A stretch of 62,855 bases of DNA, the filler included, from Octopus bimaculoides (Eukaryota), in the NCBI RefSeq assembly GCF_001194135.2. It is 4 parts of 4 records of this genome, joined end to end, with 100 filler letters (N's around TTAATTAATTAA, not from the genome) between each part and the next. Parts side by side here need not be neighbours in the genome. Positions count along the whole stretch, not along the records: positions 20,893 to 52,015 come from NC_068982.1; positions 52,116 to 62,855 come from NC_068983.1; 2 more parts are not named here. One strand, 5' to 3'. The number at the start of each line of letters is the position of its first letter. Position 1 is the first letter of the stretch. A program made the position numbers and the translations under genes. Below the pieces are notes generated by a model that saw nothing but the letters and a program-made list of their open reading frames with translations, had not been told where the DNA came from and did not search any database. Shown in pieces: positions 1,765-60,446 of this stretch.

Positions 1765-2366
1765 GAGTGGGAGAGGAAACGAAAGAAACATTAAAATGTC
1801 TGATGTCAAAGAAGTCAACGTTGGATCAGCAACACCAAATAAGCAGCGCAAACGTCTCATCTTCAAAAATATCCCACATCACTTGTGATTCGGTCATCAC
1901 AAGTTACCTCCTATTGTCTTCTGTTATAGAATCTATAATGGTTTTATTGCCGTTCGGACTCAGTAAGTAGTTTCCCTTACATCTTACACACTTTACCTCT
2001 GATAGCACTTCATCGTTTTTGTTTAGTCCCTTGTCAGCCTTCATCAAACACATTTCTAGCAGTGACCGTCTCCCCTTTATTTTCAAGTATAGTGTAGTTA
2101 TGGGATCTTTGTGATTTGACGGGCAACACTTGTTTTCTTAACGAAACACTTTCAAACTTGGGACACTGGTAGAATGTGTCATATAAAACAACTTCTTCTC
2201 TTAACCTTCTTAACAAAAAATTGTACATCGCAAGTTATTTCATGTTAAAGTTGTCGTATTTCTGTAATTTCAACCAATCACTGACGTCTATTCAGCTGAA
2301 TACAGTTAGTGCTGTTCGGTGTTAAGTGTGTTATTCCCTGTTTAATTATATCATTATTCCCAAGTA

Positions 2367-2448
2367 AGGGTTTAGGGTTTTAGGGTTAGGATTCGGGTTT
2401 TAGGGTTAGGGTTCGGGTTTTAGGGTTCGGGTTTCAGGGTTAGGGTTG
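2367..2448 (+). repeat. Interstitial telomere-like repeat array (TTAGGG with TTTAGGG, TTTTAGGG and TTCGGG variants) running into an N gap
   Basis: Directly visible, e.g. TTTAGGGTTTTAGGGTTAGGATTCGGGTTTTAGGGTTAGGGTTCGGG. Confidence 0.85.
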
Positions 2449-3334
2449 NNNNNNNNNNNNNNNNNNNNNNNNNNNNNNNNNNNNNNNNNNNNNNNNNNNN
2501 NNNNNNNNNNNNNNNNNNNNNNNNNNNNNNNNNNNNNNNNNNNNNNNNNNNNNNNNNNNNNNNNNNNNNNNNNNNNNNNNNNNNNNNNNNNNNNNNNNNN
2601 NNNNNNNNNNNNNNNNNNNNNNNNNNNNNNNNNNNNNNNNNNNNNNNNNNNNNNNNNNNNNNNNNNNNNNNNNNNNNNNNNNNNNNNNNNNNNNNNNNNN
2701 NNNNNNNNNNNNNNNNNNNNNNNNNNNNNNNNNNNNNNNNNNNNNNNNNNNNNNNNNNNNNNNNNNNNNNNNNNNNNNNNNNNNNNNNNNNNNNNNNNNN
2801 NNNNNNNNNNNNNNNNNNNNNNNNNNNNNNNNNNNNNNNNNNNNNNNNNNNNNNNNNNNNNNNNAAAACCAGTACAAACGCACGAACGATGTCATAAATA
2901 ACAATGACAAACGAAATATATACCGCTGATAGTTGTTGTTGACAACGTCACTAATTTTATTCAAGGGAAAAAATCCCGTAACACCGTTGTTTACATTCCA
3001 CGGCGTAATTGTTTTCACCTCAATAGACGTCAGTGATTGGTTGAAATCACCGAAATACGACAATTTTTTACATGAAATAATTTCGAATACAAAATTTTTT
3101 ATGTGTTCTATAACACAAAATATACAAGTATTCGAAGTTTGAAAGTGTTTCGGTACCAAAAACACTACATAAAAAAATGTTGCCCATCAAATCATAAAGA
3201 TCCTAGTTATTACCATATTACGAAATATGTTCGTTTTCTTTTTTTAAGGGACAATAGGATGTGAGTGACTGCTGTTTCTAGAAAGTGGAACGGCCTAATA
3301 GAGGCTTTCCACATTAAACCATCGATTCACCGAT

Positions 3335-30620: not shown

Positions 30621-31234
30621 NNNNNNNNNNNNNNNNNNNNNNNNNNNNNNNNNNNNNNNNNNNNNNNNNNNNNNNNNNNNNNNNNNNNNNNNNNNNNNNN
30701 NNNNNNNNNNNNNNNNNNNNNNNNNNNNNNNNNNNNNNNNNNNNNNNNNNNNNNNNNNNNNNNNNNNNNNNNNNNNNNNNNNNNNNNNNNNNNNNNNNNN
30801 NNNNNNNNNNNNNNNNNNNNNNNNNNNNNNNNNNNNNNNNNNNNNNNNNNNNNNNNNNNNNNNNNNNNNNNNNNNNNNNNNNNNNNNNNNNNNNNNNNNN
30901 NNNNNNNNNNNNNNNNNNNNNNNNNNNNNNNNNNNNNNNNNNNNNNNNNNNNNNNNNNNNNNNNNNNNNNNNNNNNNNNNNNNNNNNNNNNNNNNNNNNN
31001 NNNNNNNNNNNATATATATACAGGGAGAGAGTGGGAAAGAGAGAGTGGGGGAGAGAGAGAGGGAGGGACTTTTTCAAAAATTACGATTAAGGAAGACATT
31101 TCTAGAGTGCAGAATGGTACTAACTGCTCAGAAGGAATTTCACAAATTGTGTGTAAGCTTTAATAAATGTTCAAGCGCTTTCAGTTCTCAGCGTTATCAA
31201 GAATATGTTATTGCTACCGCATGTAGCGGAGTTG

Positions 31235-31445
31235 TTTTAGGTAAATTTGAAGATAATTTCCCGTTCAGTTTCGAATTCGGAGACCTTATAAAATATTCTT
31301 CTTTTGCCTTTCGAAGCATGTCGTTTTCGTCATTTATTTTAGAAAAGGGGAATGTTGTGAATATTCCTTGTGCACAGGTATCTAAGTGGTTGCTGCATGG
31401 TATGCACCTAAGCGAAGGATGTTTTATTTGGTGTCTATGCACATT
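31235..31445 (-). pseudogene. Penelope-like element GIY-YIG endonuclease C-terminal fragment
   Basis: HRHQIKHPSLRCIPCSNHLDTCAQGIFTTFPFSKINDENDMLRKAKEEYFI followed by a frameshifted SKLN. This matches the H-R...HL..C...R..KE..FI..F.PKLN ending typical of PLE endonucleases (family knowledge, no search run). Confidence 0.7.
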
Positions 31446-31947
31446 TGAACGGTTGGTTTATACATATATGTGTGTGTGTGTGTGTGTGTGTATATTTGTG
31501 TATATGTATGTCTGCATCTCTATATATGNNNNNNNNNNNNNNNNNNNNNNNNNNNNNNNNNNNNNNNNNNNNNNNNNNNNNNNNNNNNNNNNNNNNNNNN
31601 NNNNNNNNNNNNNNNNNNNNNNNNNNNNNNNNNNNNNNNNNNNNNNNNNNNNNNNNNNNNNNNNNNNNNNNNNNNNNNNNNNNNNNNNNNNNNNNNNNNN
31701 NNNNNNNNNNNNNNNNNNNNNNNNNNNNNNNNNNNNNNNNNNNNNNNNNNNNNNNNNNNNNNNNNNNNNNNNNNNNNNNNNNNNNNNNNNNNNNNNNNNN
31801 NNNNNNNNNNNNNNNNNNNNNNNNNNNNNNNNNNNNNNNNNNNNNNNNNNNNNNNNNNNNNNNNNNNNNNNNNNNNNNNNNNNNNNNNNNNNNNNNNNNN
31901 NNNNNNNNNNNNNNNNATATATATATATATATATATATACACACATG

Positions 31948-44610: not shown

Positions 44611-45146
44611 TATGTGTATATGTGTGTGCGTGTGTGTGGATGTGTGTTCGTGTACGAATGTGTGATTGTGTTCGTGTATCTGTGACAATACATGCGCAAA
44701 TATGTGTGTACGCCGGTGTGTGCATCTGGAGGCATCCATTGCATAAAGTAAATCTGTCCACATTTCTAACGTGTAAATAGTCGCATATGCATTCCGCGGA
44801 AGTATTCCTCGATCCAATCTCTGTATGATATCAGTTGCCAAATTAATTATGTATACATCATATCAGGTTTTGCTGATAATCAACTTGTTCATAGAGTTCC
44901 GATACTATAATATCTGTCGAAGTTTGCTGTTCTACGTTATTTGGAGATGACATTATCGTATGAAACAAAGTAATTTCAAAACCGTAGAATGTTTGTATTT
45001 ACATTTCAGCGACATTTTGTTGTTGTTTCTGACAGGTTCACCAACCACATAGAAGCTTTATCGTTGTATCCTATGCATGTGTATTGTGGAGTGTGAGTGT
45101 GTGTGTATGTGTTTCGCTGGGGAGAGAGAGATAGCCTTACGTGATA

Positions 45147-45191
45147 CACACGGACCCGGGTTTCTGGTTAGTAACCCGTCATCAGCGCGTG
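45147..45191 (-). ncRNA. Minimal type I hammerhead ribozyme candidate (GUC site)
   Basis: Minus strand: CACGCG CTGATGA C GGGTTACTAACC A GAAA C-CCGG-G TC CGTGTG. Six-bp stem I with one G-U; palindromic stem III ACCCGGGT. Confidence 0.75.
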
Positions 45192-45324
45192 ACAATCACC
45201 AGCTAGCGATGAGAACTCATTCCAAACGCAAAATATTATATGCTTTTCCAGTGACAAACTGTCGCTGATCTCGAAACAGGTGAAACAAGCAATAATAAAT
45301 CTCTCAGCGAGACGTAAACAGTAG

Positions 45325-45440
45325 GAGCACGGAATCGTGAGATGGGAACGAAGATTTCCCTTCATAAATATTAATAGGACACAGACATTGCGTCGTTAGC
45401 CAGCTGGAGGAGATGTCTTCCTGGGGTTATAAACAACAGT
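45325..45440 (+). mobile_element. Diverged relative of the 59.6-60.0 kb element arm
   Basis: TGAGATGGG...GATTTCCCTT...TAGCCAGCTGGAGGAGATGTCTTCCTGGGGTTA aligns with TGAGATGGGG...GATTCCCTTG...TAGCCAGCTGGAGACGATGTCTCCTGGGGCTA at 59855-59942. Confidence 0.7.
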
Positions 45441-45473
45441 GGATCCGCCACATTTAGGTGGCAAATATACTTC

Positions 45474-45512
<39 letters not shown>

Positions 45513-46413
45513 AAACGTATGTATAATATGTATAGAAATGTATGTGTATGAACGCATATATTTATATATTATCATCCTTGTGTAGGTAGAAGGCATGATT
45601 TATATATAATTAACGAAATTAACATACGAGACGCAACCATATGAATAATCGCACACACAGACTCACACACGAACATACATGTAAATGTTTGTGTTCGTGT
45701 GTGTGTGTGTGTGTGTATGTGGTGGTGTGTGTATCTGCGTATGTATGGGTATGGATAAATGTATGTACTTATGTATTAATACAAGGAGGTGCTGAAAAGT
45801 TTTTAGCTTTGGATAAAAGAAATTGCAGGAGGATCTGTTAAATATGATTTATTCAACTTATTGCCCTCTCAGATTCACACATTTATTGTAGCAGTCCTTC
45901 GGTTTTTCTAAGCCCTGTAAATGAACTCAGAGATTTAAATCTCCAACCGAGCCTTAAAAACCATAAAGCTTAAAAGTATTCAGTAGCTCCTCGTTTATGT
46001 TCTTTAAATATTTGGACGACATGGCCTGCTCCATGAAGCCTCGCGTGTTGCTATAACAACACAATACCTCAACGCACACATATGTATAGGGCTGCATATC
46101 GCTCTGTGCGCTTTATATGCAGGTCTGTGTGTATGTGTATATGTTTGTGTGAAGTGGGGTGTATGTATGGATGCACCTGTGAGTGATAATCTAATAAGTT
46201 GTACTCTACTCAGAGGCATAGCAAACTCCTGACTTTAAAGACGAAGTAAACGTTCTAACCATTTCTGAAGTTTCTTGACTTCAAAAAAGTTTGAAATCGT
46301 TCGGATTCGGAGGTAAATTCTAGATTAAGTGAACCAATAATTTTATGTTTAATGACATTAAATTCATACAACTTAGAGTTTCTTTATTTAATAGAGTTAT
46401 ATTTCGTCTAGAT

Positions 46414-46709
46414 CAGTGGTTCCCAAAGTGGACGGTACTACCCCTCTGTGGACGATCAAGAGAGACGTTGAAGAAAATCGGGGCAATAATAAGGTGACTA
46501 AGTGGGGGCGATGGATGTAAACACCACCCCCACCAAAAAAGGAAAGAAATAATGGGTCAATTAGATTAAGTTTTATTTGTGAAATACTGTTGTTTTGAAT
46601 TTTCTGCAGAAAGTGGTCTACATTTGTGGAGGTGGACGGGGGTTAAGAACAGTAGGAATGTGGCCCGAGTGTCAAGGGGCGGCAGTCCGAGAAAGTTTGG
46701 GAACCACTG
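46414..46709. mobile_element. 296-bp hAT (Charlie/Buster-type) MITE
   Basis: Perfect TIRs CAGTGGTTCCCAAA / TTTGGGAACCACTG; perfect 8-bp TSD GTCTAGAT (46406-46413, 46710-46717) matching the Buster/Charlie NTCTAGAN preference. Confidence 0.95.
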
Positions 46710-46819
46710 GTCTAGATTTTCAAGATAAAGTTATTTTGTGAGTATTTATTTATATTGGGTTTGTGCAAAATGTATAGAAAAGTTTTGATTTAATGCAGCG
46801 AAAATAATACTCCTATCTT

Positions 46820-47010
46820 ATCTTGGCACAAAGCCAGTGAATTTGAGGGATGAGGAAATCGATTACATCGATTCTAGTGCTGAAGTTGTACTTATTTTAT
46901 TCACTTCGAAACGATGAAAGGCAAAGTCATCCTCGGCGACATTCCAACTGAGAACGTAAATTCGGAAAACAATCCGCTAAGCATTTTGTCCGGCGTGCTA
47001 ACGATTCTGA
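46820..47010 (-). mobile_element. SINE family B, degenerate
   Basis: GGCACAAAGCC tail through GCTAAGCATTTTGTCCGGCGTGCTAACG. Confidence 0.75.
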
Positions 47011-47526
47011 CACTTCATTGCATTTGCAGCAGATATAGTAAAGTCATTATGTGAAATACATATTTGTTTTACGGTCCTTACGAATGTGCATTTAAACTGC
47101 TTTACAAAATGTATTCCAATGAATATTTAATATTCCGCCGAGGTCTAATTTGCTATTCATACTTTCGGAGTCAATAAGTAACAAATGAGCACAAGGGTTA
47201 GTACAATCAACTTAGCCCCATCTCTGAAAATGTGTCAAAATTTGTGCCTTGTGCCAAAATTTGAAACCACTTAATATTCAATGCTCTTTACAAGTTCCAC
47301 AATGATCTGTGACTGATTTCAATTTTCTTCTTCCTAGTTAATGTCGAAAGGGGTTCAGTCAAATTGTTCTAGTCATATACTCGTTTTCCTACAAAACAAC
47401 AATCAGCACTTATTTAGAAATACTACATTTCTAAATATCTCAGAGAGATTTATGCAGTAGTGATACGATGAAGTAGTTGTATACTGTCAACTTAACGTGA
47501 CACTCCCCTGAAGGGANNNNNNNNNN

Positions 47527-47801
47527 AAGTAGTTGTATACTGTCAACTTAACGTGACAGTCCCCTGAAGGGAATAATACTACTGTTGGTTAGACTTAGGA
47601 AGCTGCACCGCTTCCTGTCGTCCTTGACACATTTCCTGTATCCTTATGTTTACAAGGGCGAGACAAGCATCTCTACCCAGGCAAACCTGCATCCAGAGAC
47701 ATGTTTCTGAGTCTTTGCTCGTCATCAGTCTGTAGTAGCATGACCAGCTATTATTCCCTTCGGGGGACTCTCACATTAAGTTGACAGTATACAACTACTT
47801 C
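47527..47801. mobile_element. ~275-bp element with ~55-bp terminal inverted repeats enclosing a hammerhead motif
   Basis: AAGTAGTTGTATACTGTCAACTTAACGTGACAGTCCCCTGAAGGGAATAATA ... TATTATTCCCTTCGGGGGACTCTCACATTAAGTTGACAGTATACAACTACTTC. No TSD found. Confidence 0.85.
47692..47734 (-). ncRNA. Minimal type I hammerhead ribozyme candidate (GUC site)
   Basis: Minus strand: TACAGA CTGATGA C GAG-CAAAGA-CTC A GAAA C-AT-G TC TCTGGA. Stem I pairs 5 of 6 positions; palindromic stem III ACATGT. Confidence 0.7.
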
Positions 47802-48761
47802 AACAATTAACTCCCTCTACAGATGTGTGGATTTTTAACAATCTAAGAAATAAATTAAGGTAAAAGATTAAAAATGCACATATTTTGAACCAGGTGGGGA
47901 ATTCGATAAATGAGGAACAGTTTTTTACTTTATAATGTGACAAACTATTATTTGATCTATATAAGGTGGGGAATTTGCAGAATCTTTAGCATCGGACAAA
48001 GTGTTTGGCGGGATTCCTTCAGGTTCTTTACCGCCTGATTTCAATTACCACTGATGTCGGCTTTGCTCTTCATCTTTTCGGGGTCGATAGAATACGAACC
48101 AGTTGAACATTGGGGGTGGGGATCAATATTTATTGATTTTCCCCTTCTTTAAAATTACTGGCGTCTACAAAGATTAAATTTATTTACGCAATATGAGAAA
48201 CAATACAGTATTGTTTTGAATGTGTCAGAAAGTTATTTAGAATTTAATGAATTCTGTCACTGTATTATCATAGAATGTTTAAAACTGCTGTGTACAGCGT
48301 TAAAATTACTGGTTTAAACTATTTTGACATTACTCATTTTGATAATACTCTTGAGTATGAAGAGAACGCTTCTTAATCTAAAACTTTTCTCCATGAAATT
48401 GTGATATTGTTGTCATAATTACTTAATGTTCATTATAAGTAATTAACAAAGAAGTCTTGTCTTTTCTTCTGTAACTGTACATCAGGTCATTTCTAGACGA
48501 AGTTACTTTTGCATTTCACCATGTCTTGGTCGACAAAATAAGTACAAATAGTCAAGACATGTGTAATTTGATAGAACCACTCGACAGAGTGTCAAGCAGT
48601 ATAGTAGTGGAATTTAATGACTTTTATGTTATAATTTCACATCCTGTCGAGGTTAAATTTGGCTTTCGTCTTCCCAATATTGATAGAATAAAGACATTAT
48701 GACCAATCCGTTAACATTCCTGGCTTTGTTCTTAATTTAGAAAACATTATATTCGTCTGTC

Positions 48762-48910
48762 TTTATGTTCTGAGTTCAAATTCCGCCGAGGTCGAGTTTG
48801 CCTTTCATCGTTTCAGGGTCGATAAATTAAGTACCAATTACGTACTGGGGCCGATCTAATCGACTGGCCCCTCCCCAAAAGTTTCGGGCCTTGTGCCTAG
48901 AGTAGAAAAG
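48762..48910 (+). mobile_element. SINE family B, 5'-truncated well-preserved copy
   Basis: GTTCTGAGTTCAAATTCCGCCGAGGTCG...GGGCCTTGTGCCTAGAGTAGAAAAG. Confidence 0.88.
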
Positions 48911-51900
48911 AATTTAGAAAACATTATTGTTGTAGAGGAACGAATGAGGGAATCACTAAAGACTCGGAGAAAATACTTTATTTAATCACTTAATCAAGTT
49001 TCTTTAAATTCTTAATTGAAATTTTACCCCGGCCGACTTTACCTTTCATCGTAAAGGGTTTGACACCAGTCGCCCAAAATATGTGTCCTTATGTCTAAGT
49101 TATTAACGATTATTATTAGTGAAGGAGTGGTGAATGACAAAACCAATAGCGTACTGGAAGAAGTGTCTAGTGGTATTTAGTTGCTTCCCTTTAAGTTCCT
49201 AATTCGAATCCCAAAAGCATCGATGTTGCCTTTCATGATTTTGAGATCGAGAAAATAAAATACCAGCGACGTTATGATTCTATATAACAGAACGATGTGT
49301 TTTCGCAGTAAACAAGACCTCGTGATTATACTAGGCGTTAATTTAAACGGCAATATAAATCTCAGCTATGACTTTGTCTTAGTGTCAGAAGTAATTACTA
49401 CATTGATCTTTATGCGTTTTTATAGAACCTGTACAACGATAGACTAATTGTCTGCCATTGTTTAGGTCTGTCATTTTATACCACAAGTCCAAATTTTACA
49501 AAGAGTTTTGATTTTGCCATTCTTTCTTCTACCCCTGGATCGATAAAATAAGTACTAAAATCAAACCGGAATCAATATTCATTGATTATAAATCCATCTA
49601 TCAATAGATTTATGGCAATGTTACAATTAGTTTCCTAACCTTAGCACAAAACAACAATATTTTGGACACGAGTAAATTCCATTATCTTTTGACTCCTACA
49701 CATCTATAAAACATATTTTATGAACGCGGACAAATTAATAGCAACATCAATATTGGTGGTAAATGAACAATAAACGTGATATGATGTAACATTATGTTTT
49801 AAGATATATTGTCAGGTATTTAATGGATTACGTTATCTAATCTATCAACCTCAATAATATAAATTTCTAACTTTGTCATAAGGCCGCAAGATTGTGTAGA
49901 TAGATATGAACCGCAAAAGCAACCTCAATCTGTGTGTGTGTGTGTGTTTACGTGCGCGTGCTTATGTGTCTAGCGAAAAGCCACATCAGGTTTCTTTATA
50001 AACTACAAGTGATTTTTTTCTGTTTTTTTTTTCTCTCTTTTGTCATATTTAACGTGAACATATTGTGAATTTTAAATTAAATTAAAAACCGGAAAACCTG
50101 AAAGAAAAACGTTGCAACATTCTATGGATTCAGCACAAAAAAGTGGTATAAAAATCCCGAAATGTTAGCACCAACCAGTGTGTAGGCATAAGCAAAATTT
50201 AGGTTAGCGAAAATATGTTTGTGACATATCTCAACTACTAAAAGGCAAATTCACTGCAGTTACCCTGAAGAAAATATCTCTCTTATGGTGAAAAGGTGTG
50301 GAGACACCCGGTTTTTTCAGCGTCGCCATCTATAAGGAACAACAGTGACTGATTTGGGCTGATTTGCGCTGGTAGATTGTTATTTTCCTCGATTGGGCGA
50401 TCTACCAGCGCAAATCAGTCAACGTTGTTGACTGAAGTTTACATAAAGCTATTGCTTTATAAGTTTTTTTCAGAGAGGCCACTCTTAAGTATATCCCATT
50501 GAAAAGTGTAAAAAACTCGAAATGTCGATGTCTGGGATTCCAGATAGATGGAGACACTGAACAAACCAGATTCTTCACAACTTTTTACCATAAGGGATAT
50601 TTTCGTCACGATAACTGCAGTGATTTTTGCATTTTTGCGGTTGAAATATTTCAAATATATTTTAACTAACCTAGATTTTACAATAAAAATCAGTTATCTT
50701 TATTACAGGGTATCAAATATTTTCTTTCGCAGTTTTATCATTACTAGTTTTTATACAGCGGCAGCTATCAGAATCATTAGAGCATCTGGTAAATGCATAG
50801 AGGTATTTGTCCCGGGTCTTTACCATTCTAGTTCAAATCCCAATGTGGATAAAATTTTCATTTCAAACCAGTGGAATTGGTAAACTAAAGTTCCGGTCAA
50901 AAGTATAGAGCAAGCCCCCTACTCAAAAATTGTATCTAATCCAGAGTCAATATCACTTCCATTATTTATGTTCCTCCATCTGCCTTTTATTTTCCTGTCA
51001 ATTGCATTTAAAGAATTTTTCTAGAAACTTCTTTATCATTAATATCTTTTGCATGTTATCGATTTGAGTAATTAGACAGTGCTGGGTTTCCAAATATCTT
51101 TAATGATTTTTCTACAAACTACTTTTTCCTTAAGATTCAGTATATTATATCGATTTTACGTAATTAGACAATGTAAGTTTCGAAATATTTTAGACTTAAT
51201 GTTTTCCAAATGCAGAAAATATATATTTCTCATCTTCTAAGAGTTATATTGAAAACGCAAGTGCTAAAGCTGCCTAAGTAACCAGAAAATCAATGTCACT
51301 TACATACTTTTAGCAGCTGGCTCTTCAATTATTATTTACCTTTATAATTAATGCAGTGGATTTGAGATAACAAAAAAAATAAACAGAATTTAAAATCATG
51401 TTCCTTGTGATCATACTGCATTAAATATTCAACTAAAATCGTGTAAGAATGGCCGGCTGGGAAATATTTGTGCATAAAACAAGCTGGAACATCTGTTATC
51501 TATCAAACACTTTTACTAAATGCAACAGGAAAATGCAACTACACAGAGCAAAAGTTCCCTTCGAAAATATCTGGAATTTGTAAAATAGTTCCTGTAAGAA
51601 AGCATCTTTAACAATCAGAAAGGCATTACCGAACGTAAGGTAATATCTTTTGTCATTAATCTTTCGACAGCCATACTGTGGCACCGCTTTGAATTATCTT
51701 AATCGAACGAATCGACTCTAGTATTTTTTAAAAGCCTAGTACTAATTTTATCAGGCTCTTTTTGACGAACCGTTAAGCTACGAGGACATGAACAAACCAA
51801 AACTGGTTGTTAAGCGTGAGGTGTGGATAAACATACATATACACATACACACACACGTATACACGTATATATAATATATATAAATATAGAGATAAATAAA

Positions 51901-53289
51901 TATATATATATAAATACATATATACATACATATATACATATATATACATACATATATATATATATATATGAATATACATACATACATATGTATATATATA
52001 TATATATATATATATNNNNNNNNNNNNNNNNNNNNNNNNNNNNNNNNNNNNNNNNNNNNTTAATTAATTAANNNNNNNNNNNNNNNNNNNNNNNNNNNNN
52101 NNNNNNNNNNNNNNNTTGTACTTTTTTGTACTTCTTTGTAAAAAAACATTTTCATTCTCCTTCTTCTTGATAATTTGCTTCATCGCAATGAAAACCGGTT
52201 AGAAAAAATCTTTATTAAATTATGCTCCCAGTTCAGCATTCTGGCTTTTTTTCATTTTCTTATATATATATATATATATAATTGAGATTCAGATGAAATT
52301 AGGTACTAGAGTTGAGGCACCATAAATTAGTGCGGAATTATCCGTACAGTTTCATCTTCATTTATTCATCATAGCTATTTCTATCACAGTGTTTGTTAGC
52401 GCCCCATAAAGTTGATTGGCACATATTCAATATTATTCAAAAGTTTCCATTTCGTTTCGTTCTTAATACTGAGAACTGCTAGCGCGGTATTTAGTACTTT
52501 GTATAGAATTTTGGTTTGGCACAAGGTTTTAAAGTTGAACAATCTACTACAACATATTACAAGTGAAACCTAAAATCGGTCCCGGCTTGATTTGAAATCA
52601 AAAAATAAACATGAAAATACTGATATTTATCTCTGAAAATCGGAAGTTACACAACAGTCTGTGCCAGTCAAATACCGGAAGTTACACATAGTTTGACCTT
52701 CTTAAGGTCTGTATATGTTTTAAAGTTAAAATATTGAATTACTCCAATGTTAGTAATTTGAAATTAAACTGAATAAACTCTAGTGAAATCACAGGGGAAT
52801 TAGAATATCAACGTTTTGTTCTGCTGTATGTTTTTAAATATTACAACTTAAAATTTGAAATAATATAAACCCCGTGGTAATGCAAGCCGTCTATGACGGT
52901 GCAGTAATGGAATATCCAAGAAGAATCATGGGATAAAATAATGCAGACGATAGACAAAACGCAACAGAAAAAAGAAGACGAGTAGAAAATATAATAATTT
53001 CTGGTGAGGAGTGGAGAAACAGAAAAGAATTGATAAAGGTCATGAGGGAAGAAAATAGGTTGATAGTGGTTTTACATCATTTACTGCTTGTCATGGCTTT
53101 GAAGGAATGACATCTATGTAGCAAACGATTAGATATAAAATTATATTTTAACAATTTTATCAACCTCTACACGATAACGTCCATATTTGGTTAATACCGT
53201 GTTATGTTAAAATAATCATTTTACACTAAATTCACTCGGTTCATATCAAGGCTTGCTTCCTCCTTTCTTTCCTTCTCTATGTCTCATCT

Positions 53290-53528
53290 TATCTTTTATC
53301 TTTTACTTGTTTCAGCCATTAGACTGCGGCCATGCTGGGACACCGCCTTTAAAGGGTTTTGTGGAACAAATCGACCCTTACCTCGTACCTTTTTTTAAAG
53401 TCTGGTACTGATTTTATTCGTAACTTTTGCTGAACCGCTAAGATACAGAGACGTAAACAAATCAACACCGGTTGTCAAGTGGTGGTGGTGGGGGGGGGAC
53501 AAACACAGACACAAACACAGACACAAAG

Positions 53529-53582
<54 letters not shown>

Positions 53583-53714
53583 ACAGACAGACATACATAC
53601 AAATATACACACGACGGACTTCTTTCGGTTTCCGTCTACCAAATCCACTCACAAGGATTTGGTCGGCCCGAGGCTATATAGTAGAAGACACTTTCCCAAG
53701 GTGCCACACAGTGG
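53290..53714 (-). mobile_element. SINE family A (5' head missing)
   Basis: Reverse-complement tail, body and microsatellite; ends at CCCAAGGTGCCACACAGTGG. Confidence 0.85.
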
Positions 53715-53740
53715 CAAGCGTCCTCTACTATAGCTCAGAC

Positions 53741-53971
53741 CAGTGATTCCCAAATTGGGCGGTATTGTTCCCCTGGGAGCGGTGAAAAATTCCAAACGGG
53801 CGTTGAAGAAAAGTGGGGTTTATTAGGTAAAGTTTTATTTGTGAAATACAGTTGCTTTGAGTTTGCTTCAGAAAGAGGTCTATGTTTGTGAGGGTTAGTT
53901 GGGGTGGGGGTGCTAGGAATGTGGCCTGGGTGTCAAGGGGGCGGCAGCCCAAGAAAGTTTGAGAAGCACTG
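53741..53971. mobile_element. Second, older copy of the hAT MITE, inserted into a + strand SINE A
   Basis: TIRs CAGTGATTCCCAAA / TTTGAGAAGCACTG; internal homology to 46414-46709 (CGTTGAAGAAAA, TAAGTTTTATTTGTGAAATAC, TAGGAATGTGGCC); diverged TSD GCTCAGAC / TTCTAGAC. Confidence 0.85.
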
Positions 53972-54104
53972 TTCTAGACCAACCAATGCTCGTCGTATAT
54001 ATATATATGTATATATACATACATGTATGTGCATGTGTCCGTTTGCTTTCCCCCCACACTGCTTGGTAACCGGTGTTGGTTTGTTTACGTTTCCTTAAGT
54101 TACT

Positions 54105-54451
54105 GGTTCGTAATCCAAGCTTTCCTGGTCAAGAACAACAGACCTCTTGTTCGACAGGCTCCCTCTCCTACCGACTTGGCACTGTATGACTTCTGGCTTT
54201 CCCCCAGAACTGATAACCACGCTGCTAAGGAAGCGATTTCAGTCATGAGAGGAAATTATGATAAAAGCGACGGCGGAGCTCCATACTATTCCGGAGAAGG
54301 CGTTCCAGAGATGCTACCGGCAGTGGCAGAACCGCTGGTTCTGTGTGGCTCCCGAGGTTAGTGTTTTGCAGGGGATTATATTAAACTTTGTAGAATGTAC
54401 AAAATTGTTATTTTTATGTCAAAAGGTTAGATACATTTTGAACACACCCCG
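54105..54451 (+). mobile_element. Mariner transposon 3' fragment with right TIR
   Basis: QAFLVKNNRPLVRQAPSPTDLALYDFWLSP (cf. PYSPDLAPxDFWLF), MIKATAELHTIPEKAFQRCYRQWQNRW; terminus TTTTGAACACACCCCG followed by TA. Confidence 0.88.
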
Positions 54452-54943
54452 TAGATAAAGAGAGAGAGGGGGAGAGGGGGAGAGATATGGATAGAATTAT
54501 GTAGAACGCCTACTAAGCCACAATATGAATGAATGTTAGCAGAATATTCCAGTCAAGGCCTCAGTAAAATGTAGGCTAAACAGACGAGACATAACGATCA
54601 CAATCGGAGAAAAGCAAAACACAGAGTGTGATAATTGGTTGTCCAGCAGACGATAGCATAATGTTGAAGATGAAAGAAAAATAAGATATCTGTTGCCGAA
54701 CTAATGAGGAATCGGTGAATACTCCGCTCCGTCTATGAGTTTAGATGCATATTTGTAATTAGTGGAGCGTTTGGTTATACGTAACTATCTCAGCATCAAT
54801 TTTGAAAGGTTTCTTAAAACCAGAAAGGATATGGCTAATTAAGATAATACAATTACAGACCATTATTAGAATTGTGGAAATAAATAAAATATTCAATATT
54901 ACATACATTTACATGCGTTTAGACATAAACACACACATACATA

Positions 54944-55012
<69 letters not shown>

Positions 55013-55635
55013 NNNNNNNNNNNNNNNNNNNNNNNNNNNNNNNNNNNNNNNNNNNNNNNNNNNNNNNNNNNNNNNNNNNNNNNNNNNNNNNNNNNNNNNN
55101 NNNNNNNNNNNNNNNNNNNNNNNNNNNNNNNNNNNNNNNNNNNNNNNNNNNNNNNNNNNNNNNNNNNNNNNNNNNNNNNNNNNNNNNNNNNNNNNNNNNN
55201 NNNNNNNNNNNNNNNNNNNNNNNNNNNNNNNNNNNNNNNNNNNNNNNNNNNNNNNNNNNNNNNNNNNNNNNNNNNNNNNNNNNNNNNNNNNNNNNNNNNN
55301 NNNNNNNNNNNNNNNNNNNNNNNNNNNNGATAAATTGAATATTAATTCAATTTAAAACCAAGTAGCCTAGTATATAAAAAAACTGCAGTCCATAGATAAT
55401 TCTTTATTCTGTATATTTCTTATTTTGTCCTGTTCTGGTGTTTTTACTAAATTTTTCTGGAGAACATTATTTTTCTTTGTGGTTGGGTCGTTGATGACCT
55501 CTTTCTAGCATATTGGATGTCCACCTAGTAGTCATCCCTTATACACGTGTAGTATATATATATTGTATTTAATCAGCAGAAGCTTCTAAAGTTATTCAGA
55601 GGCCGAGAGTTCGTTACATAAAACTTATCAAAAGT

Positions 55636-55945
55636 TTGCTGTCCATGTATGCGACCGTTGTTCACCACTTTGATGACATCTTAGATGCACTAAGTGGAGG
55701 CTCCAACGCGGATATCATACAGCTTGATTTCAGTAAGGCCTTTGACAGAGTCGACCACAATATGCTGTTAAGGAAACTATCAAACGCTGGAGTTGGTGGG
55801 AAGTTACTTCAATGGATTAGGTATTTCCTAACAAACAGGACCCAGCGTGTTGTGGTTGGTGGCATCCACTCAAGATCAGCAAAAGTCATCAGCGGAGTCC
55901 CGCAGGGTACTGTGCTGGATCCACTTCTTTTTATTGTCTATATCA
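55636..55945 (+). pseudogene. CR1/L2-group LINE reverse transcriptase fragment
   Basis: DIIQLDFSKAFDRVDHNMLLRKL...WIRYFLTNRTQRVVVGG...SGVPQGTVLDPLLFIVYI; truncated by a microsatellite before YADD. Confidence 0.92.
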
Positions 55946-55959
55946 TATGTATATATATG

Positions 55960-56004
<45 letters not shown>

Positions 56005-56010
56005 CGCGTG

Positions 56011-56042
<32 letters not shown>

Positions 56043-56737
56043 TGAGTATGTTAGCTATTAGCGACAAAAACAGACTTTGTAACAAAATATTAATTTGCAT
56101 ATCCAACTTAACTTGGATCTGTTGTTTTAAATGCTGTAAGCTGCAGCTGTTGTCCTGAGCAATCATCACGTATAGATGCTGAATGCCAAAAAGCTTAGAT
56201 TATATCGGCAGATGAAATTTCGTTAACGCCGTCGGATAAGGTTGCTGTATCACGTGATTTCAGCGTATCCTACTATCGAATGCCAGATCGAAATTATGTC
56301 TGAAATGACACGACGGGAGAAAAGAAAAGGCTGTCGAATATTACATCTCCTATGTGACCGGCTGCAACTGATGGGGCACACAAAACAGCATGAGCTAATA
56401 CACGTAAACAGGAAATAGTAAGAGAGAGACAGGTGACACTCAGCTTGCTTGTAATTTGGCCAGCATCTTTATCTGTCTCACAGGCCTCTCTCTCTTTTTC
56501 TCTCTCTCTCTCTCTCGCACACACACACACACACACACATACACACATACGCACAAACACTTCTAACCGCCACAAACACTTCTTTCTCGGCTTTATTTTC
56601 TAATTCACTCTTATTTATTTCCCACCATATTAATTTCTTTCTCTCCCTGTTTCTCTTGTCGTTTTACATACATTCTTAAATATTTCTGTCTCTCGCTATA
56701 TTATATAAAACATATACTTTTGAAATATTCGTTTCAA

Positions 56738-56930
56738 ATTTTGGCACAAGGCCAGCAATTTCGGGGAGGAGATTAAGTCGATTACATCAACTGGTACTTA
56801 ATTTATCGGTCCAGTAAGGATGAAAGGTAAAGTCGACTTCGGCGGAATTTGAACTCAGACCCTAAAGACGGATGAAATGCCGCTAAGCATTTCGTCCGGC
56901 ATGCTAACGGTTCTGCCAGTTCACCACCTT
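56738..56930 (-). mobile_element. SINE family B
   Basis: Reverse-complement family B sequence. Confidence 0.85.
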
Positions 56931-57289
56931 ATGTAGTTTTAAAATAATGTGACGAATTATGTAGGGGAAGCTGCAATTGGCTGAAGATTTAGTGTCCATC
57001 CCTACCAATAATGCAAAAGGACATGGAGCCCAACCGACATTTTCACATCCGCTAAAAATCGTGGACATCGAAACAGCTGAGGAAATACATTAAGAAAGGA
57101 TTCCGGTTTAGCCTGGCAAAAGACACTGCGATATCGTAATATATTGCAATACTTCAGTGGTATAGTCTGAAGAAAGACAAAACATTCGCTTGGTCGTCAC
57201 AACTGGAAATATTGTAAATATAGAAAGCAGTTCTATCTTGTAGTTATTGATTTTATTTCGAGTTATTATTATGAAATAACATGGAAAAG

Positions 57290-57465
57290 CGGTGAGCTGC
57301 CAGAATCGTTACCACGACAGGCAAATAGCGGTATTTTCGTTAGTCTTTACGTTCTGAGTTCAAATTTCATCGTGGTCGACTCTGCCGTTCATCCTTTCGG
57401 AGTTGAACACTGGGGTCGATGTAATCGATTTAGCCCCTCCCCCGAACTTACTGGCCCTTTGCCAA
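57290..57465 (+). mobile_element. SINE family B
   Basis: GCGGTGAGCTGCCAGAATCGTT...CTGAGTTCAAATTTC...GGGGTCGATGTAATCG. Confidence 0.8.
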
Positions 57466-57523
57466 AATTATGAAATATCATGGTGGTATAATTGATCGAG
57501 AAGACATGCTACTTTATAATTAT

Positions 57524-58508
57524 AACAAGAGCACTCAAAGAGCACAAACCTCCGCCAAGGCAACACCAACGTCCTCTCAATGATTAGCCGGAGATGATTT
57601 TTAAAATGAGAATATCTGAAATAAACTCAACTGCTCTCACAAACAAGAATACTAAAATGGAACCCGACCGCTCTCAAGAATTTAGTATCAAAACAGGAAA
57701 AATAATCCAGAATTCTTGTCCGGTACCAGATCGATCCCAATGAAAGTCATGGAATGTGAAGGAGTGTGTTTGCAATGCTGTGTGTGTGTGTCGTCTGCAG
57801 TGGGAACAGAGACAGTTTTCTCTATGAAGGCCTTTTTTAATCTATCCACTGATATCGTGCCTTTACGACCATTAAGGTCTACAGCGAAAAATTTATCTGT
57901 GTGAAAGAAAACGGAAAGGACCTGCATACGGTAAGTCCAAAAAGTAAAGCTTCCTTCAAGGCAGAGCTGGAAATGCAACTGTCAAGTAGGTAAGAGGTTT
58001 TAAACAGGAGTGATATATTTAAAATTGGTAAAACTAAAAATTGTTGAGGAGAAATTAAATTTATTATTGTTACTGAATATGTCAGTGTTATTTAATTTCT
58101 GAACGGTTTTGCTGGCGTTTGTTTATGTTGTTTGATTTCTTTATCCATCAATTTCTACTATGATAGAGATGTGAGTAAAATTAATAATAGAGAAACGAAA
58201 ATAAAACTTTGTAAACAGCAACGCCATCATAACTCGTGGAAACCAGGAGTGTGCTTTCAAGGGAGATAATCAGAGAATGATTAGAAAGTGAACGTAAGAT
58301 CGTAATACTTTATCTAAAGTAAAGTAAATATAACAAATAATCCAGAATCCTTGTCCGGTACCGGATCGATCCTAAAATCTAATCAGTTCGTGCCAGTCAC
58401 GAGGCTAAATATCCTTGAAAGTTTCATCCGAATCCATCCAGCGCTTCTTGAGATATCTTGTCCACGGACAAACAAACACGACTGAAAACGATACCTCCGC
58501 CTCCGCTA
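57524..58508 (+). mobile_element. Non-autonomous Helentron/HINE-like element with an internal foreign segment
   Basis: Starts ACAAGAGCACTCAAAGAGCACAAACCTCCGCCAAGGC and ends ATACCTCCGCCTCCGC (ACCTCCGCC at both ends); ~38-bp direct repeats at 57701-57738 and 58336-58372. The class assignment is inference. Confidence 0.45.
57800..57960 (-). pseudogene. Gypsy/Ty3 integrase C-terminal fragment
   Basis: FHTDKFFAVDLNGRKGTISVDRLKKAF, cf. the Gypsy ending GPF.V...DK.F.+DLNGR..T+S+DRLKPAF. Confidence 0.7.
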
Positions 58509-58532
58509 TATATATATATATATATATATATA

Positions 58533-58692
58533 TGACGAACTTTTTTCAGTTTCCGTCTACCAAATCCACTCTCAAGGTTTTAGTCGACCCGAGGCTATAG
58601 TAAGAGATACTTGCCCAAGGTACTACGCAGTGGGACTAAATCCGAAACCATCAGGTTGAGAAGCAAACGTCTTACCACACAGCCACGCCTGC
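58533..58692 (-). mobile_element. SINE family A, 5' half
   Basis: TTTCCGTCTACCAAATCCACTC...CTTACCACACAGCCACGCCTGC. Confidence 0.85.
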
Positions 58693-58819
58693 AATTATAA
58701 GAATAAAATTTATAATGAATGAAGTGACTAACGGTTCGAATCTTATCAAGCAGTTCATCTAAGAGCAAACATGTAACGCGTACAAGCAAGCGTCATCACA
58801 GTAAAAGTGGTGAGTTACT

Positions 58820-59262
58820 CTTTGACACGTTGGCTCGTTGACTCCTTCACTAGTTGGCTCGTTGGCTCGTTAACTCACTGTCTCGTTGACTCGTTGACTC
58901 GCTGACTCGTTGACTCGCTGACTCTTTGATTCGTTGACTCGTTAGCTCGTTAACTCGTTAGCTCGTTGACTCGTTAGCTCGTTGACTCGTTAGCTCGTTG
59001 ACTCGTTGATTCGTTGAGTCATTGGCTCGTTGGCTCTTTGACTCGTTGGCTCTTTGACTCGTTGGATCGTTGACTCGTTGGCTCGTTGACTCGTTGAGTA
59101 GCTGGTTCGTTGACTCGTTGGCTCGTTGACTCGTTGACTCGTTGACTCACTGTCTCGTTGACTCGTGGGCTCCTTCACTCGTTGACTCGCTGGCTCTTTG
59201 ACTCATTGGCTCATTCACTCGTTGGCTCGTTGACTCGCTGGCTCGTTGACTCGTTGACTCGT
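58820..59262 (+). repeat. 8-bp minisatellite (GTTGACTC / GTTGGCTC variants), roughly 55 units
   Basis: Directly visible octamer periodicity. Confidence 0.92.
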
Positions 59263-59741
59263 AGTGCTGAGGCAAATTCTGCCCACGGTGAAGGAAAATA
59301 CTTGAGGAAATGGAGTAAACGATAGGGGGAGTTTGTTATAGTCTCACATCTGTTTATTATTAGAGAAACTGAGAAAAACAGTAGGTCATTCCTCGGAGAA
59401 CAGATCTTTGAAGCTTAAGGGACGAATGCGGGATGTGATCTACAGATGTGTAGAAAATAAAACTTCAGTCACTGTAAATAACGAAATAAAAAACAAATTA
59501 GTACAGATAGTTTTGTTCTTTAATAAACATGGAATGGGAATATACGAGGTATGTTCAAAAAACAAAAGCAACTTTGGAGTAAAGATTGTTTGCCAACATA
59601 ACATGACAGTCCTGGTTTAGGGCGAATGTTGCTGTAATTTAGCCCCAGGAGACATTGTCTCCAGCTGGCTATATGACACGATCTGTATCCTTATATTTTC
59701 CAACAAGGGAATCTAACACCCCCACTCAGCTCAAAACAATA

Positions 59742-59785
59742 TCTGTGTATCGCGATTTCGGGTTATTTCTCTTCATCAGCACAGA
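59742..59785 (-). ncRNA. Minimal type I hammerhead ribozyme candidate (AUA site), left arm
   Basis: Minus strand: TCTGTG CTGATGA A GAG-AAATAA-CCC GAAA T-CGCG-A TA CACAGA. Perfect 6-bp stem I, extendable by CAAT/ATTG; palindromic stem III ATCGCGAT; one A-C mismatch in stem II. Confidence 0.8.
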
Positions 59786-59797
59786 ATAATTGTTCGG

Positions 59798-59842
59798 CTG
59801 GAGCAGATGAAGGGAAACAACCCGGAAATCGCGATACACAGA
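59798..59842 (+). ncRNA. Degenerate hammerhead motif, right arm
   Basis: CTGGAG CAGATGA A GGG-AAACAA-CCC G GAAA T-CGCG-A TA CACAGA: U4>A core change and damaged 5' strand of stem I. Confidence 0.55.
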
Positions 59843-60446
59843 TATTGTTTTGAGCTGAGATGGGGTGCTAGATTCCCTTGTTTCAAAATATAAAGATACA
59901 GATCGTGTCTATAGCCAGCTGGAGACGATGTCTCCTGGGGCTAAATGACAGCAACATTAGTCCTAAACCAGGACTGTCATGTTACGTTGGCAAATAATCT
60001 TTACTCCAAGCTACTGTTGGTAAATATCTCTTGTTGTGAGATTTACAAATAGTAATTTTCTAAACGCAAGTTTGTATGGTAATCGCTCAGGACATGCTCG
60101 ACTGTGCAAACCACGACTCAGACTTGGTGAAGACCATCATCACTGGTGATGAGACAAGGGTTTATAGTCTCTGCTCGTTACGTTCGGTCATTTTGCATGA
60201 AAACGAAAATCCGATCGTCGCTCACTACACATCTGTACTCTAGGCATAATAGTAGTGAACCGACGTGACTTACCGGCGCGAAAATTTTCACTCATGCGTA
60301 GGAAGGGTGACATGACCACGCACTCAAAGGATTTTGCACACGCGGCATTAGTTTTGGTGGAAAAAATAAAATCGGGTACTTTTTGAAGGCACCTCGTATA
60401 TTCTCTACTTGTCATTGACAAGTCTATTAAGAGATGAATGAACCGA

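Follow-up and report, generated by a model that had tools for sequence, protein, structure and literature searches.

Dispersed hammerhead ribozyme units of Octopus bimaculoides, probably mobilized by Penelope-like elements, and a LINE that inserts beside the ribozyme

Metazoan retrozymes of the non-LTR type (LTR, long terminal repeat), as described by Cervera and de la Pena (2020, PMC7229834), are non-coding units of 170-400 nt (350-390 in mussels) that are low in GC, contain a type I hammerhead ribozyme and close head to tail. A circular RNA template and mobilization by Penelope-like elements (PLEs) have been proposed for them. The published support for PLEs as mobilizers of animal retrozymes consists of co-occurrence and similarity to the pseudo-LTRs (pLTRs) of PLEs. 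PLE copies are described as truncated, as partially tandem, as joined to inverted 5' copies and as having a tail that may be absent (Craig 2021, PMC8557442), and the tail is the stretch between two internal start sites for reverse transcriptase (RT), according to Frangieh (2024, PMC11167929). Here, we describe hammerhead units found in a 62,855-nt stretch of DNA from Octopus bimaculoides (the window, made of parts of the genome joined end to end) and their relatives across the genome. We conclude that the dispersed units are probably non-autonomous elements mobilized by PLEs and bearing a predicted type I hammerhead, and that a long interspersed nuclear element (LINE) inserts next to the ribozyme.

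An earlier note on the window had proposed three minimal hammerhead motifs. All three are present, each on the minus strand:

45147-45191, minus strand: type I minimal hammerhead A, with a 6-bp stem I, core, short stem II, 8-nt palindromic stem III and GUC site
47692-47734, minus strand: type I minimal hammerhead B, with a 6-nt palindromic stem III, GUC site and one stem I mismatch in the window copy
59742-59785, minus strand: type I minimal hammerhead C, with an 8-nt palindromic stem III and AUA site

Core position C3 lies at 45185 (A), 47728 (B) and 59779 (C) on the minus strand, and cleavage is predicted after 45153, 47698 and 59748, respectively. Each motif has the CUGANGA...GAAA...UH core and stems I and II of the type I minimal hammerheads of PLEs. 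Like published PLE-type hammerheads, the octopus motifs have a palindromic stem III, an extra base after A9, a G10.1-C11.1 pair and predicted action as dimers. In contrast to these, they have a further extra base before G12 and sit in closed units without an open reading frame (ORF). Stem II is bordered on both sides by an extra or mismatched base. Stem III is computed to be unstable as a hairpin within one molecule (+2.9 to +6.0 kcal/mol) and stable as a self-duplex between two (-14.9, -4.6 and -10.1 kcal/mol). Measured against the majority sequences of their subfamilies, the window copies show decay: B has its stem I mismatch, and a stem II mismatch is present in both A and C. A descriptor drawn from the motifs (core, GAAA, palindrome of at least 6 nt, UH, and stem I of at least 3 pairs) matched the window exactly 3 times and 200 dinucleotide shuffles 0 times, a result flattered by the fact that the descriptor was written after the motifs were known. 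An Rfam scan of 40000-62855 gave 74 matches at E<=5, none of them to a hammerhead family.

Each motif represents a genomic subfamily. A first look at the octopus genome gave 1,990 candidates for A, 2,292 for B and 2,179 for C, of which 40 per subfamily were scored. A pattern common to the three motifs has 1,111 matches in the genome, compared with 3 for a reversed control. When 30 loci per family were extended by k-mer walk in both directions, the sequences closed on themselves as units of 358 (A), 351 (B) and 353 nt (C). The units are 41-46% GC, and the longest ATG frames are 92, 48 and 28 codons; there is no long ORF, and none with the RT and GIY-YIG endonuclease of an autonomous PLE. In size, lack of coding capacity and type of hammerhead, they fall within the range given above for non-LTR retrozymes. 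The A, B and C units are collinear and 57-60% identical; the host elements are related, as the earlier note had suggested. Outside the window, a family E (L391-L415; for example, contig C4:103383719-103383945), with 1,218 candidates, has a closed 356-nt hammerhead unit with a canonical stem II and a 10-14-nt palindrome. Family E can barely be aligned with A-C (z 2.7-3.6) and has the same two 3' ends. Family D (L252 and L259) has a C-like unit with a U3-A8 variant core and is also invaded by the LINE.

The ribozyme stems covary between subfamilies. Among motifs collected from a subset of loci, 110 of 112 sort into five subfamilies, and the other 2 are spurious. The five subfamily majorities keep the core, differ in stem I on both strands and have four different palindromes. 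Compensatory changes, which had been claimed from the three window motifs, are found in stem I and the palindrome of the majorities as well. In 18 aligned whole units, double-sided changes occur at 12 of 39 consensus pairs, over several hairpins; these units are related, and the fraction is not a probability. Stems I and III were missed by RNAalifold, since this part of the alignment is out of register. Folded as circles, the three units give z of -5.2, -7.2 and -8.8 (relative to 60 shuffles), and each fold has a long helix that links both sides of the hammerhead. That diverged families hold a near-equal length and fold suggests a constraint on the RNA. A run of 5 nt at columns 301-306 of alignment A1 (unit ~280-290) hardly varies; in A, B and C it is complementary to the hammerhead core. 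This stretch, which is without covariation support, could keep the ribozyme off.

The ends of the copies are those expected of PLE insertion. We mapped 116 segments in 70 loci that were chosen by pattern along contig C1 (the 70 regions cover most of the first 100 listed matches). The copies are dispersed and 5'-truncated with ragged 5' ends. Their 3' ends are at two internal sites: 41 fall at unit 200-219 and 47 at 260-279 (88 of 116 combined). Both orientations are present in 39 of the 70 loci, and the inverted arms stop at the same two 3' sites. Fixed internal 3' ends with an optional tail, 5' truncation and inverted 5' copies occur together in these elements. The arrangement that the earlier note had asked about is one of dispersed copies, commonly with inverted partial arms and occasionally dimeric. 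The PLE Poseidon PAc of Anolis likewise has two internal RT start sites bounding a tail and, as described, no RNA-seq ends at its hammerhead site; in contrast to the octopus units, PAc is autonomous and its tail is 30-40 bp rather than ~55 (Frangieh 2024, PMC11167929). Just 2 of the 116 segments have a 5' end at unit 30-49, the zone of predicted cleavage, which indicates that RT passed through the site and that the template was uncut or religated. Repeats of 9-16 nt flank 6 of 21 solo copies, compared with 2.9% of mismatched pairs. Copies end next to microsatellites in 25 of 42 cases for A, 8 of 70 for B and 4 of 59 for C, a difference that hints at different helper endonucleases. The shared core, the covarying stems, the collinear ORF-less units and the PLE-type ends support the proposal of a diversified family of non-autonomous, hammerhead-bearing retroelements.

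The window elements extend further than had been stated: A occupies 45132-45478, B 47412-47802 and C 59571-60063. Their segments are as follows:

45132-45340, minus strand: subfamily A copy, 5' segment, unit 209 to 60 through the unit junction, containing the hammerhead; 95% to the A unit and inverted relative to its 3' segment
45339-45478, plus strand: 3' segment of the subfamily A copy (unit 61-215), which has a deletion, matches the A unit at 84% and stops at the first fixed 3' site next to (TA)n
47412-47750, minus strand: subfamily B main copy, unit 336 to 267, including the tail; 94-97% to the B unit, with a 10-N gap within
47749-47802, plus strand: inverted 5'-truncated B copy, unit 157-210, by comparison with the B unit
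59571-59803, minus strand: main copy of subfamily C, matching the C unit at 96% over unit 336 to 216
59803-60063, plus strand: inverted C copy, unit 6-267, including the tail, by comparison with the C unit

The C element has a second hammerhead (59804-59842, plus strand) with a mutated core and without the 5' strand of stem I. Like most genomic copies, the three window copies are truncated and single-hammerhead, and probably dead. A and B are on contig C2 and C is on C3, so the closeness of all three may reflect how the window was joined. By contig, 11.8-20.8 kb of the window is on C86107, 31-48 kb on C2 and 59.6 kb on C3, which indicates that the window derives from an assembly with other joins. 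The window copies of B and C resemble inverted-repeat elements, as if the units were miniature inverted-repeat DNA transposons with the arms as terminal inverted repeats and an incidental hammerhead. The architecture of the copies refutes this: arm length and junction vary per copy, 31 of the 70 loci have no inverted arm, raggedness is a feature of the 5' ends as opposed to the fixed 3' ends, and the RNA structure covaries. We regard a DNA transposon as next to impossible. A tRNA or RNA polymerase III origin was rejected as well; there is no B-box, and ARAGORN matches appeared at a relaxed threshold only and were inconsistent.

Some copies are longer than one unit. Segments exceed one unit in 23 of 57 cases for A, 19 of 80 for B and 12 of 62 for C. 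Two cores 340-370 nt apart were found at 24 loci, compared with 0 in the control, and such loci are rare relative to the 1,111 motif matches. Of these, 18 are simple A-, B- or C-type dimers, 1 is scrambled and 5 belong to other families; the longest is 681 nt. The other, older families (L180, L181, L186, L191 and L193) have a spacing of 341-356 nt, within the range set by the search, and L181 and L186 apparently contain additional decayed units.

We postulate the following route for PLE-mobilized units. A copy with two hammerheads would be transcribed, and the palindromic stems III of the two hammerheads could pair, excising a unit-length RNA. This RNA may then be ligated to a circle, or the uncut linear multimer may itself be the template; we lean somewhat toward the circle. 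A PLE RT-endonuclease, acting in trans, would nick DNA and start at either of the two fixed internal sites, ~200 or ~255 nt past the core. Copying would proceed backwards through the ribozyme for up to ~1.9 rounds, and the inverted arm would be made by a second priming. What we observed are units that close on themselves, ends of the PLE type, partial copies in inverted orientation, copies longer than one unit and stems that covary, and from these we infer the route.

Several observations weigh against PLE-mobilized hammerhead elements. The lone motifs do not adopt the hammerhead fold in minimum free energy predictions. In the single PLE tested in vitro, as reported, no hammerhead was required, and the template was mainly uncut RNA (PMC11167929). 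A third unit was present in 0 of the 24 two-core loci, that is, there was no array of at least three units in a search that used an exact-core pattern on a gappy assembly, in which arrays may be missed or hidden. The lack of arrays also bears on the possibility that the units are classical non-LTR retrozymes, in which master tandem arrays, collapsed in the assembly, produce abundant circular RNA and the dispersed copies are offspring. Such retrozymes occur mainly as tandem arrays up to large multimers, whereas the octopus copies are dispersed, at most ~1.9 units long and usually with inverted arms, and have a short PLE-type hammerhead with a 6-8-nt palindrome (comparison with PMC7229834). There was also no sign of abundant free RNA (in libraries whose type is not stated). 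However, the size, GC content and lack of an ORF are as in the mussel retrozymes of that source, the 1.9-unit copies require a circle or a longer source, and the assembly has many gaps. This possibility departs from PLE-mobilized dispersed units in source loci and RNA level only; we consider it the less likely account, but one to keep in view.

RNA-seq adds to these objections. We searched three raw short-read runs under the same species label, reading ~6% of each; their selection method is not stated. Per run, 383-517 reads matched a B dimer, and 1,669-2,226 matched a locus with C plus the LINE. The reads are few and equal on both strands, 72-87% of them extend into unrelated flanks, and they do not accumulate where cutting is predicted. 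Piles seen at L175:1721 and L236:643 were away from cut sites and were rejected. The reads fit passive read-through transcription of embedded copies. Self-cleaved or circular RNA, raised as a possibility in the earlier note, was not seen in the three runs; because library selection is not stated, circles are not excluded. Words from B occur in 20 of 24 listed rows of sequencing runs, under five organism labels, and that listing contained no RNA run with the unit.

Also against a PLE origin, no autonomous partner was found. No PLE with the unit in line with its ORF was present in 100 PLE loci (50, 30 and 20; the sets partly overlap), and no pLTR homology of the unit to an autonomous partner was seen among them. 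The sample is small relative to the ~2,400-2,900 PLE candidates in the genome, so its lack of a partner does not exclude one. From the hammerhead side, an in-line PLE ORF occurs in 0 of the 70 loci, and one true PLE endonuclease lies nearby on the opposite strand. Six of seven "PLE" matches near hammerhead loci were spurious, due to a SINE-derived (short interspersed nuclear element) tail of the query, and L098 was rejected as a PLE parent, as the ORF after its unit turned out to belong to a LINE. The units could also be detached pLTRs of ordinary autonomous PLEs, that is, 5'-truncated full elements and no independent family. PLE copies are mostly 5'-truncated and have such hammerheads, and the Neptune-like PLEs of this genome carry hammerheads of the same build. 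Upstream of the octopus hammerhead, however, is the unit's own 3' end and no ORF, the 18 simple head-to-tail dimers are ORF-free, and the 0 of 70 count stands against detached pLTRs too. This explanation is largely refuted, and we find it hardly credible. The Neptune-like families (L123, L127-L129, L300 and L384-L390) have long RT-GIY-YIG frames and 3' hammerheads with an extra core U or U3-A8.

The window does contain a remnant of a PLE endonuclease, as had been reported. It lies at 31197-31457 (minus strand) and is the end of a GIY-YIG domain, with 50% over 62 aa to an RT-endonuclease frame. Pfam returned 0 families for the 86-aa remnant, and relatives with a complete domain match PF01541 (L304). 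The remnant does not qualify as partner of the hammerhead units, since its family has an unrelated 3' region (30 loci). A variant hammerhead at 31167-31206 (minus strand) lies 3' of the remnant; it has a 6-nt palindrome, its core reads U3-A8 instead of C3-G8, and it is kept in most relatives. This core variant has been described (PMC4209133).

The unit at L098 is interrupted just upstream of stem I and is followed by two ORFs. ORF1 has a CCHC knuckle (read by eye), and ORF2 matches PF03372, PF00078 and PF13966, all above cut-off; a knuckle in ORF1 with APE, RT and a zinc finger in ORF2 is the Tx1-type domain set. From the domain order, we take this LINE to be L1/Tx1-like. Its best named protein match is from Argonauta hians. 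The earlier note had called the hammerhead family cephalopod; this match for the associated LINE favors that part, and beyond it the label is an extrapolation.

Among 30 LINE loci (the top 30 of 150 scored protein hits, query included), the LINE 3' end is visible in 20. A hammerhead core lies 29-35 nt beyond it in 14 of these 20, 12 of them at 29-30, compared with 5.3% of random positions under the same loose core test. Thus, 14 of 30 loci, or 14 of the 20 with a visible 3' end, exceed the 20% of flanks in one target type that Kojima used to call target specificity. Of the remaining 3' ends, 4 are off target and 2 run into the beginning of the target, in one case with a second LINE copy after it; two loci missed by the end motif have the unit by BLAST. 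Target-site duplications of 10-24 nt, two mismatches allowed, are present in 14 of 15 LINE copies selected for visibility of both host halves. From the hammerhead side, a LINE-type 3' end is at this site in 6 of the 70 loci (4 by eye and 2 by BLAST). Hosts include three B subfamilies, C, family D with its variant core and family E, in which one full LINE has a 15-nt duplication. No A host was seen among the LINE copies examined, and the LINE interrupts none of the three window elements. By position and duplications, the L1/Tx1-like LINE uses the hammerhead units as a preferred target. Decayed LINE RT fragments in the window, at ~2100-3000 and 55570-56060, are weakly similar to it.

We favor independent insertions of the LINE into the different hosts. 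Because unit copies are never longer than ~680 nt, they are unlikely to have carried 5-kb inserts along time and again, and the upstream host half is kept at two 5'-truncated LINEs (L362 and L262). Against independent insertion, truncated L350, L355, L357 and L366 have no upstream half, which could be due to hitchhiking or later disruption. LINE sub-lineages tend to cluster by host (29 rows; 11 of 26 forks open).

The tight physical link also raises the possibility that this or another LINE mobilizes the units, as LINEs do SINEs. The 9-16-nt duplications would fit, and the window A copy has a non-overlapping inversion resembling that made by twin priming, a mechanism of LINE inversion. However, the units have no poly(A), LINE-derived tail or B-box, they end at two internal sites that are the same for inverted arms, and the LINE is a guest, flanked within the unit by duplicated halves of the target. 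Mobilization by a LINE is highly unlikely, in our view, and we retain PLEs as the probable mobilizer. A bolder proposal joins the LINE and the units in three tiers. Ribozyme RNA circles of viroid size (~350 nt) would be copied into the genome by PLE enzymes through rolling reverse transcription. In several diverged hosts, the Tx1-like LINE would home to a site ~27 nt upstream of the hammerhead, the reason being that LINE read-through RNA would be cut by the ribozyme of the host ~60 nt beyond the end of the LINE; the 3' tail left by this cut would match the target and direct the next insertion to it. We consider this an unlikely scheme.

Target-specific LINEs of the Tx1 clade, such as Tx1L in Tx1D, Tx1-Mar in Mariner-N4 and Keno in U2, are also APE-RT LINEs that occupy one set position in a multicopy repeat and have 15-19-nt duplications (Kojima 2015, PMC4494074). 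In octopus, by contrast, a hammerhead retroelement is the target, and insertions keep a constant position with respect to the core in hosts of unlike sequence. The Tx1 targets given in that account are DNA transposons, LTR elements, snRNA genes and microsatellites, with no hammerhead retroelement among them.

The units behave like metazoan non-LTR retrozymes and fit the claim of a PLE origin, but they are not arrayed; we therefore file them as a dispersed variant. A 2026 preprint on the PLE origin of retrozymes reaches the same conclusion on origin and has monomers dispersed along chromosomes. As far as its available text goes, it covers 35 species with no mollusc among the named classes, and its evidence is co-occurrence and pLTR homology, whereas ours is the insertion signature, with no homologous PLE among the sampled loci. 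The main text of PMC7229834 contains octopus or cephalopod 0 times, and the accessible text of two papers on octopus repeats has 0 occurrences of ribozyme or hammerhead. In our literature searches, neither these families nor the target of the LINE turned up; Repbase, Dfam, the preprint's supplements and Lunse 2016 may already contain them. The kind of hammerhead retroelement is already known, and the homing LINE was not found in those searches.

As a ribozyme discovery alone, the octopus motifs are ordinary, since invertebrate genomes have already yielded motifs of this kind by the thousands. On the question of what mobilizes animal retrozymes, these families make PLE-specific two-site internal priming visible directly in ORF-less units, and the units provide defined 350-nt templates for assays of PLE RT. 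A LINE whose insertions keep a constant distance to a ribozyme has a target type that we did not find in the literature, and it offers a way to test how specificity tracks a changing target.

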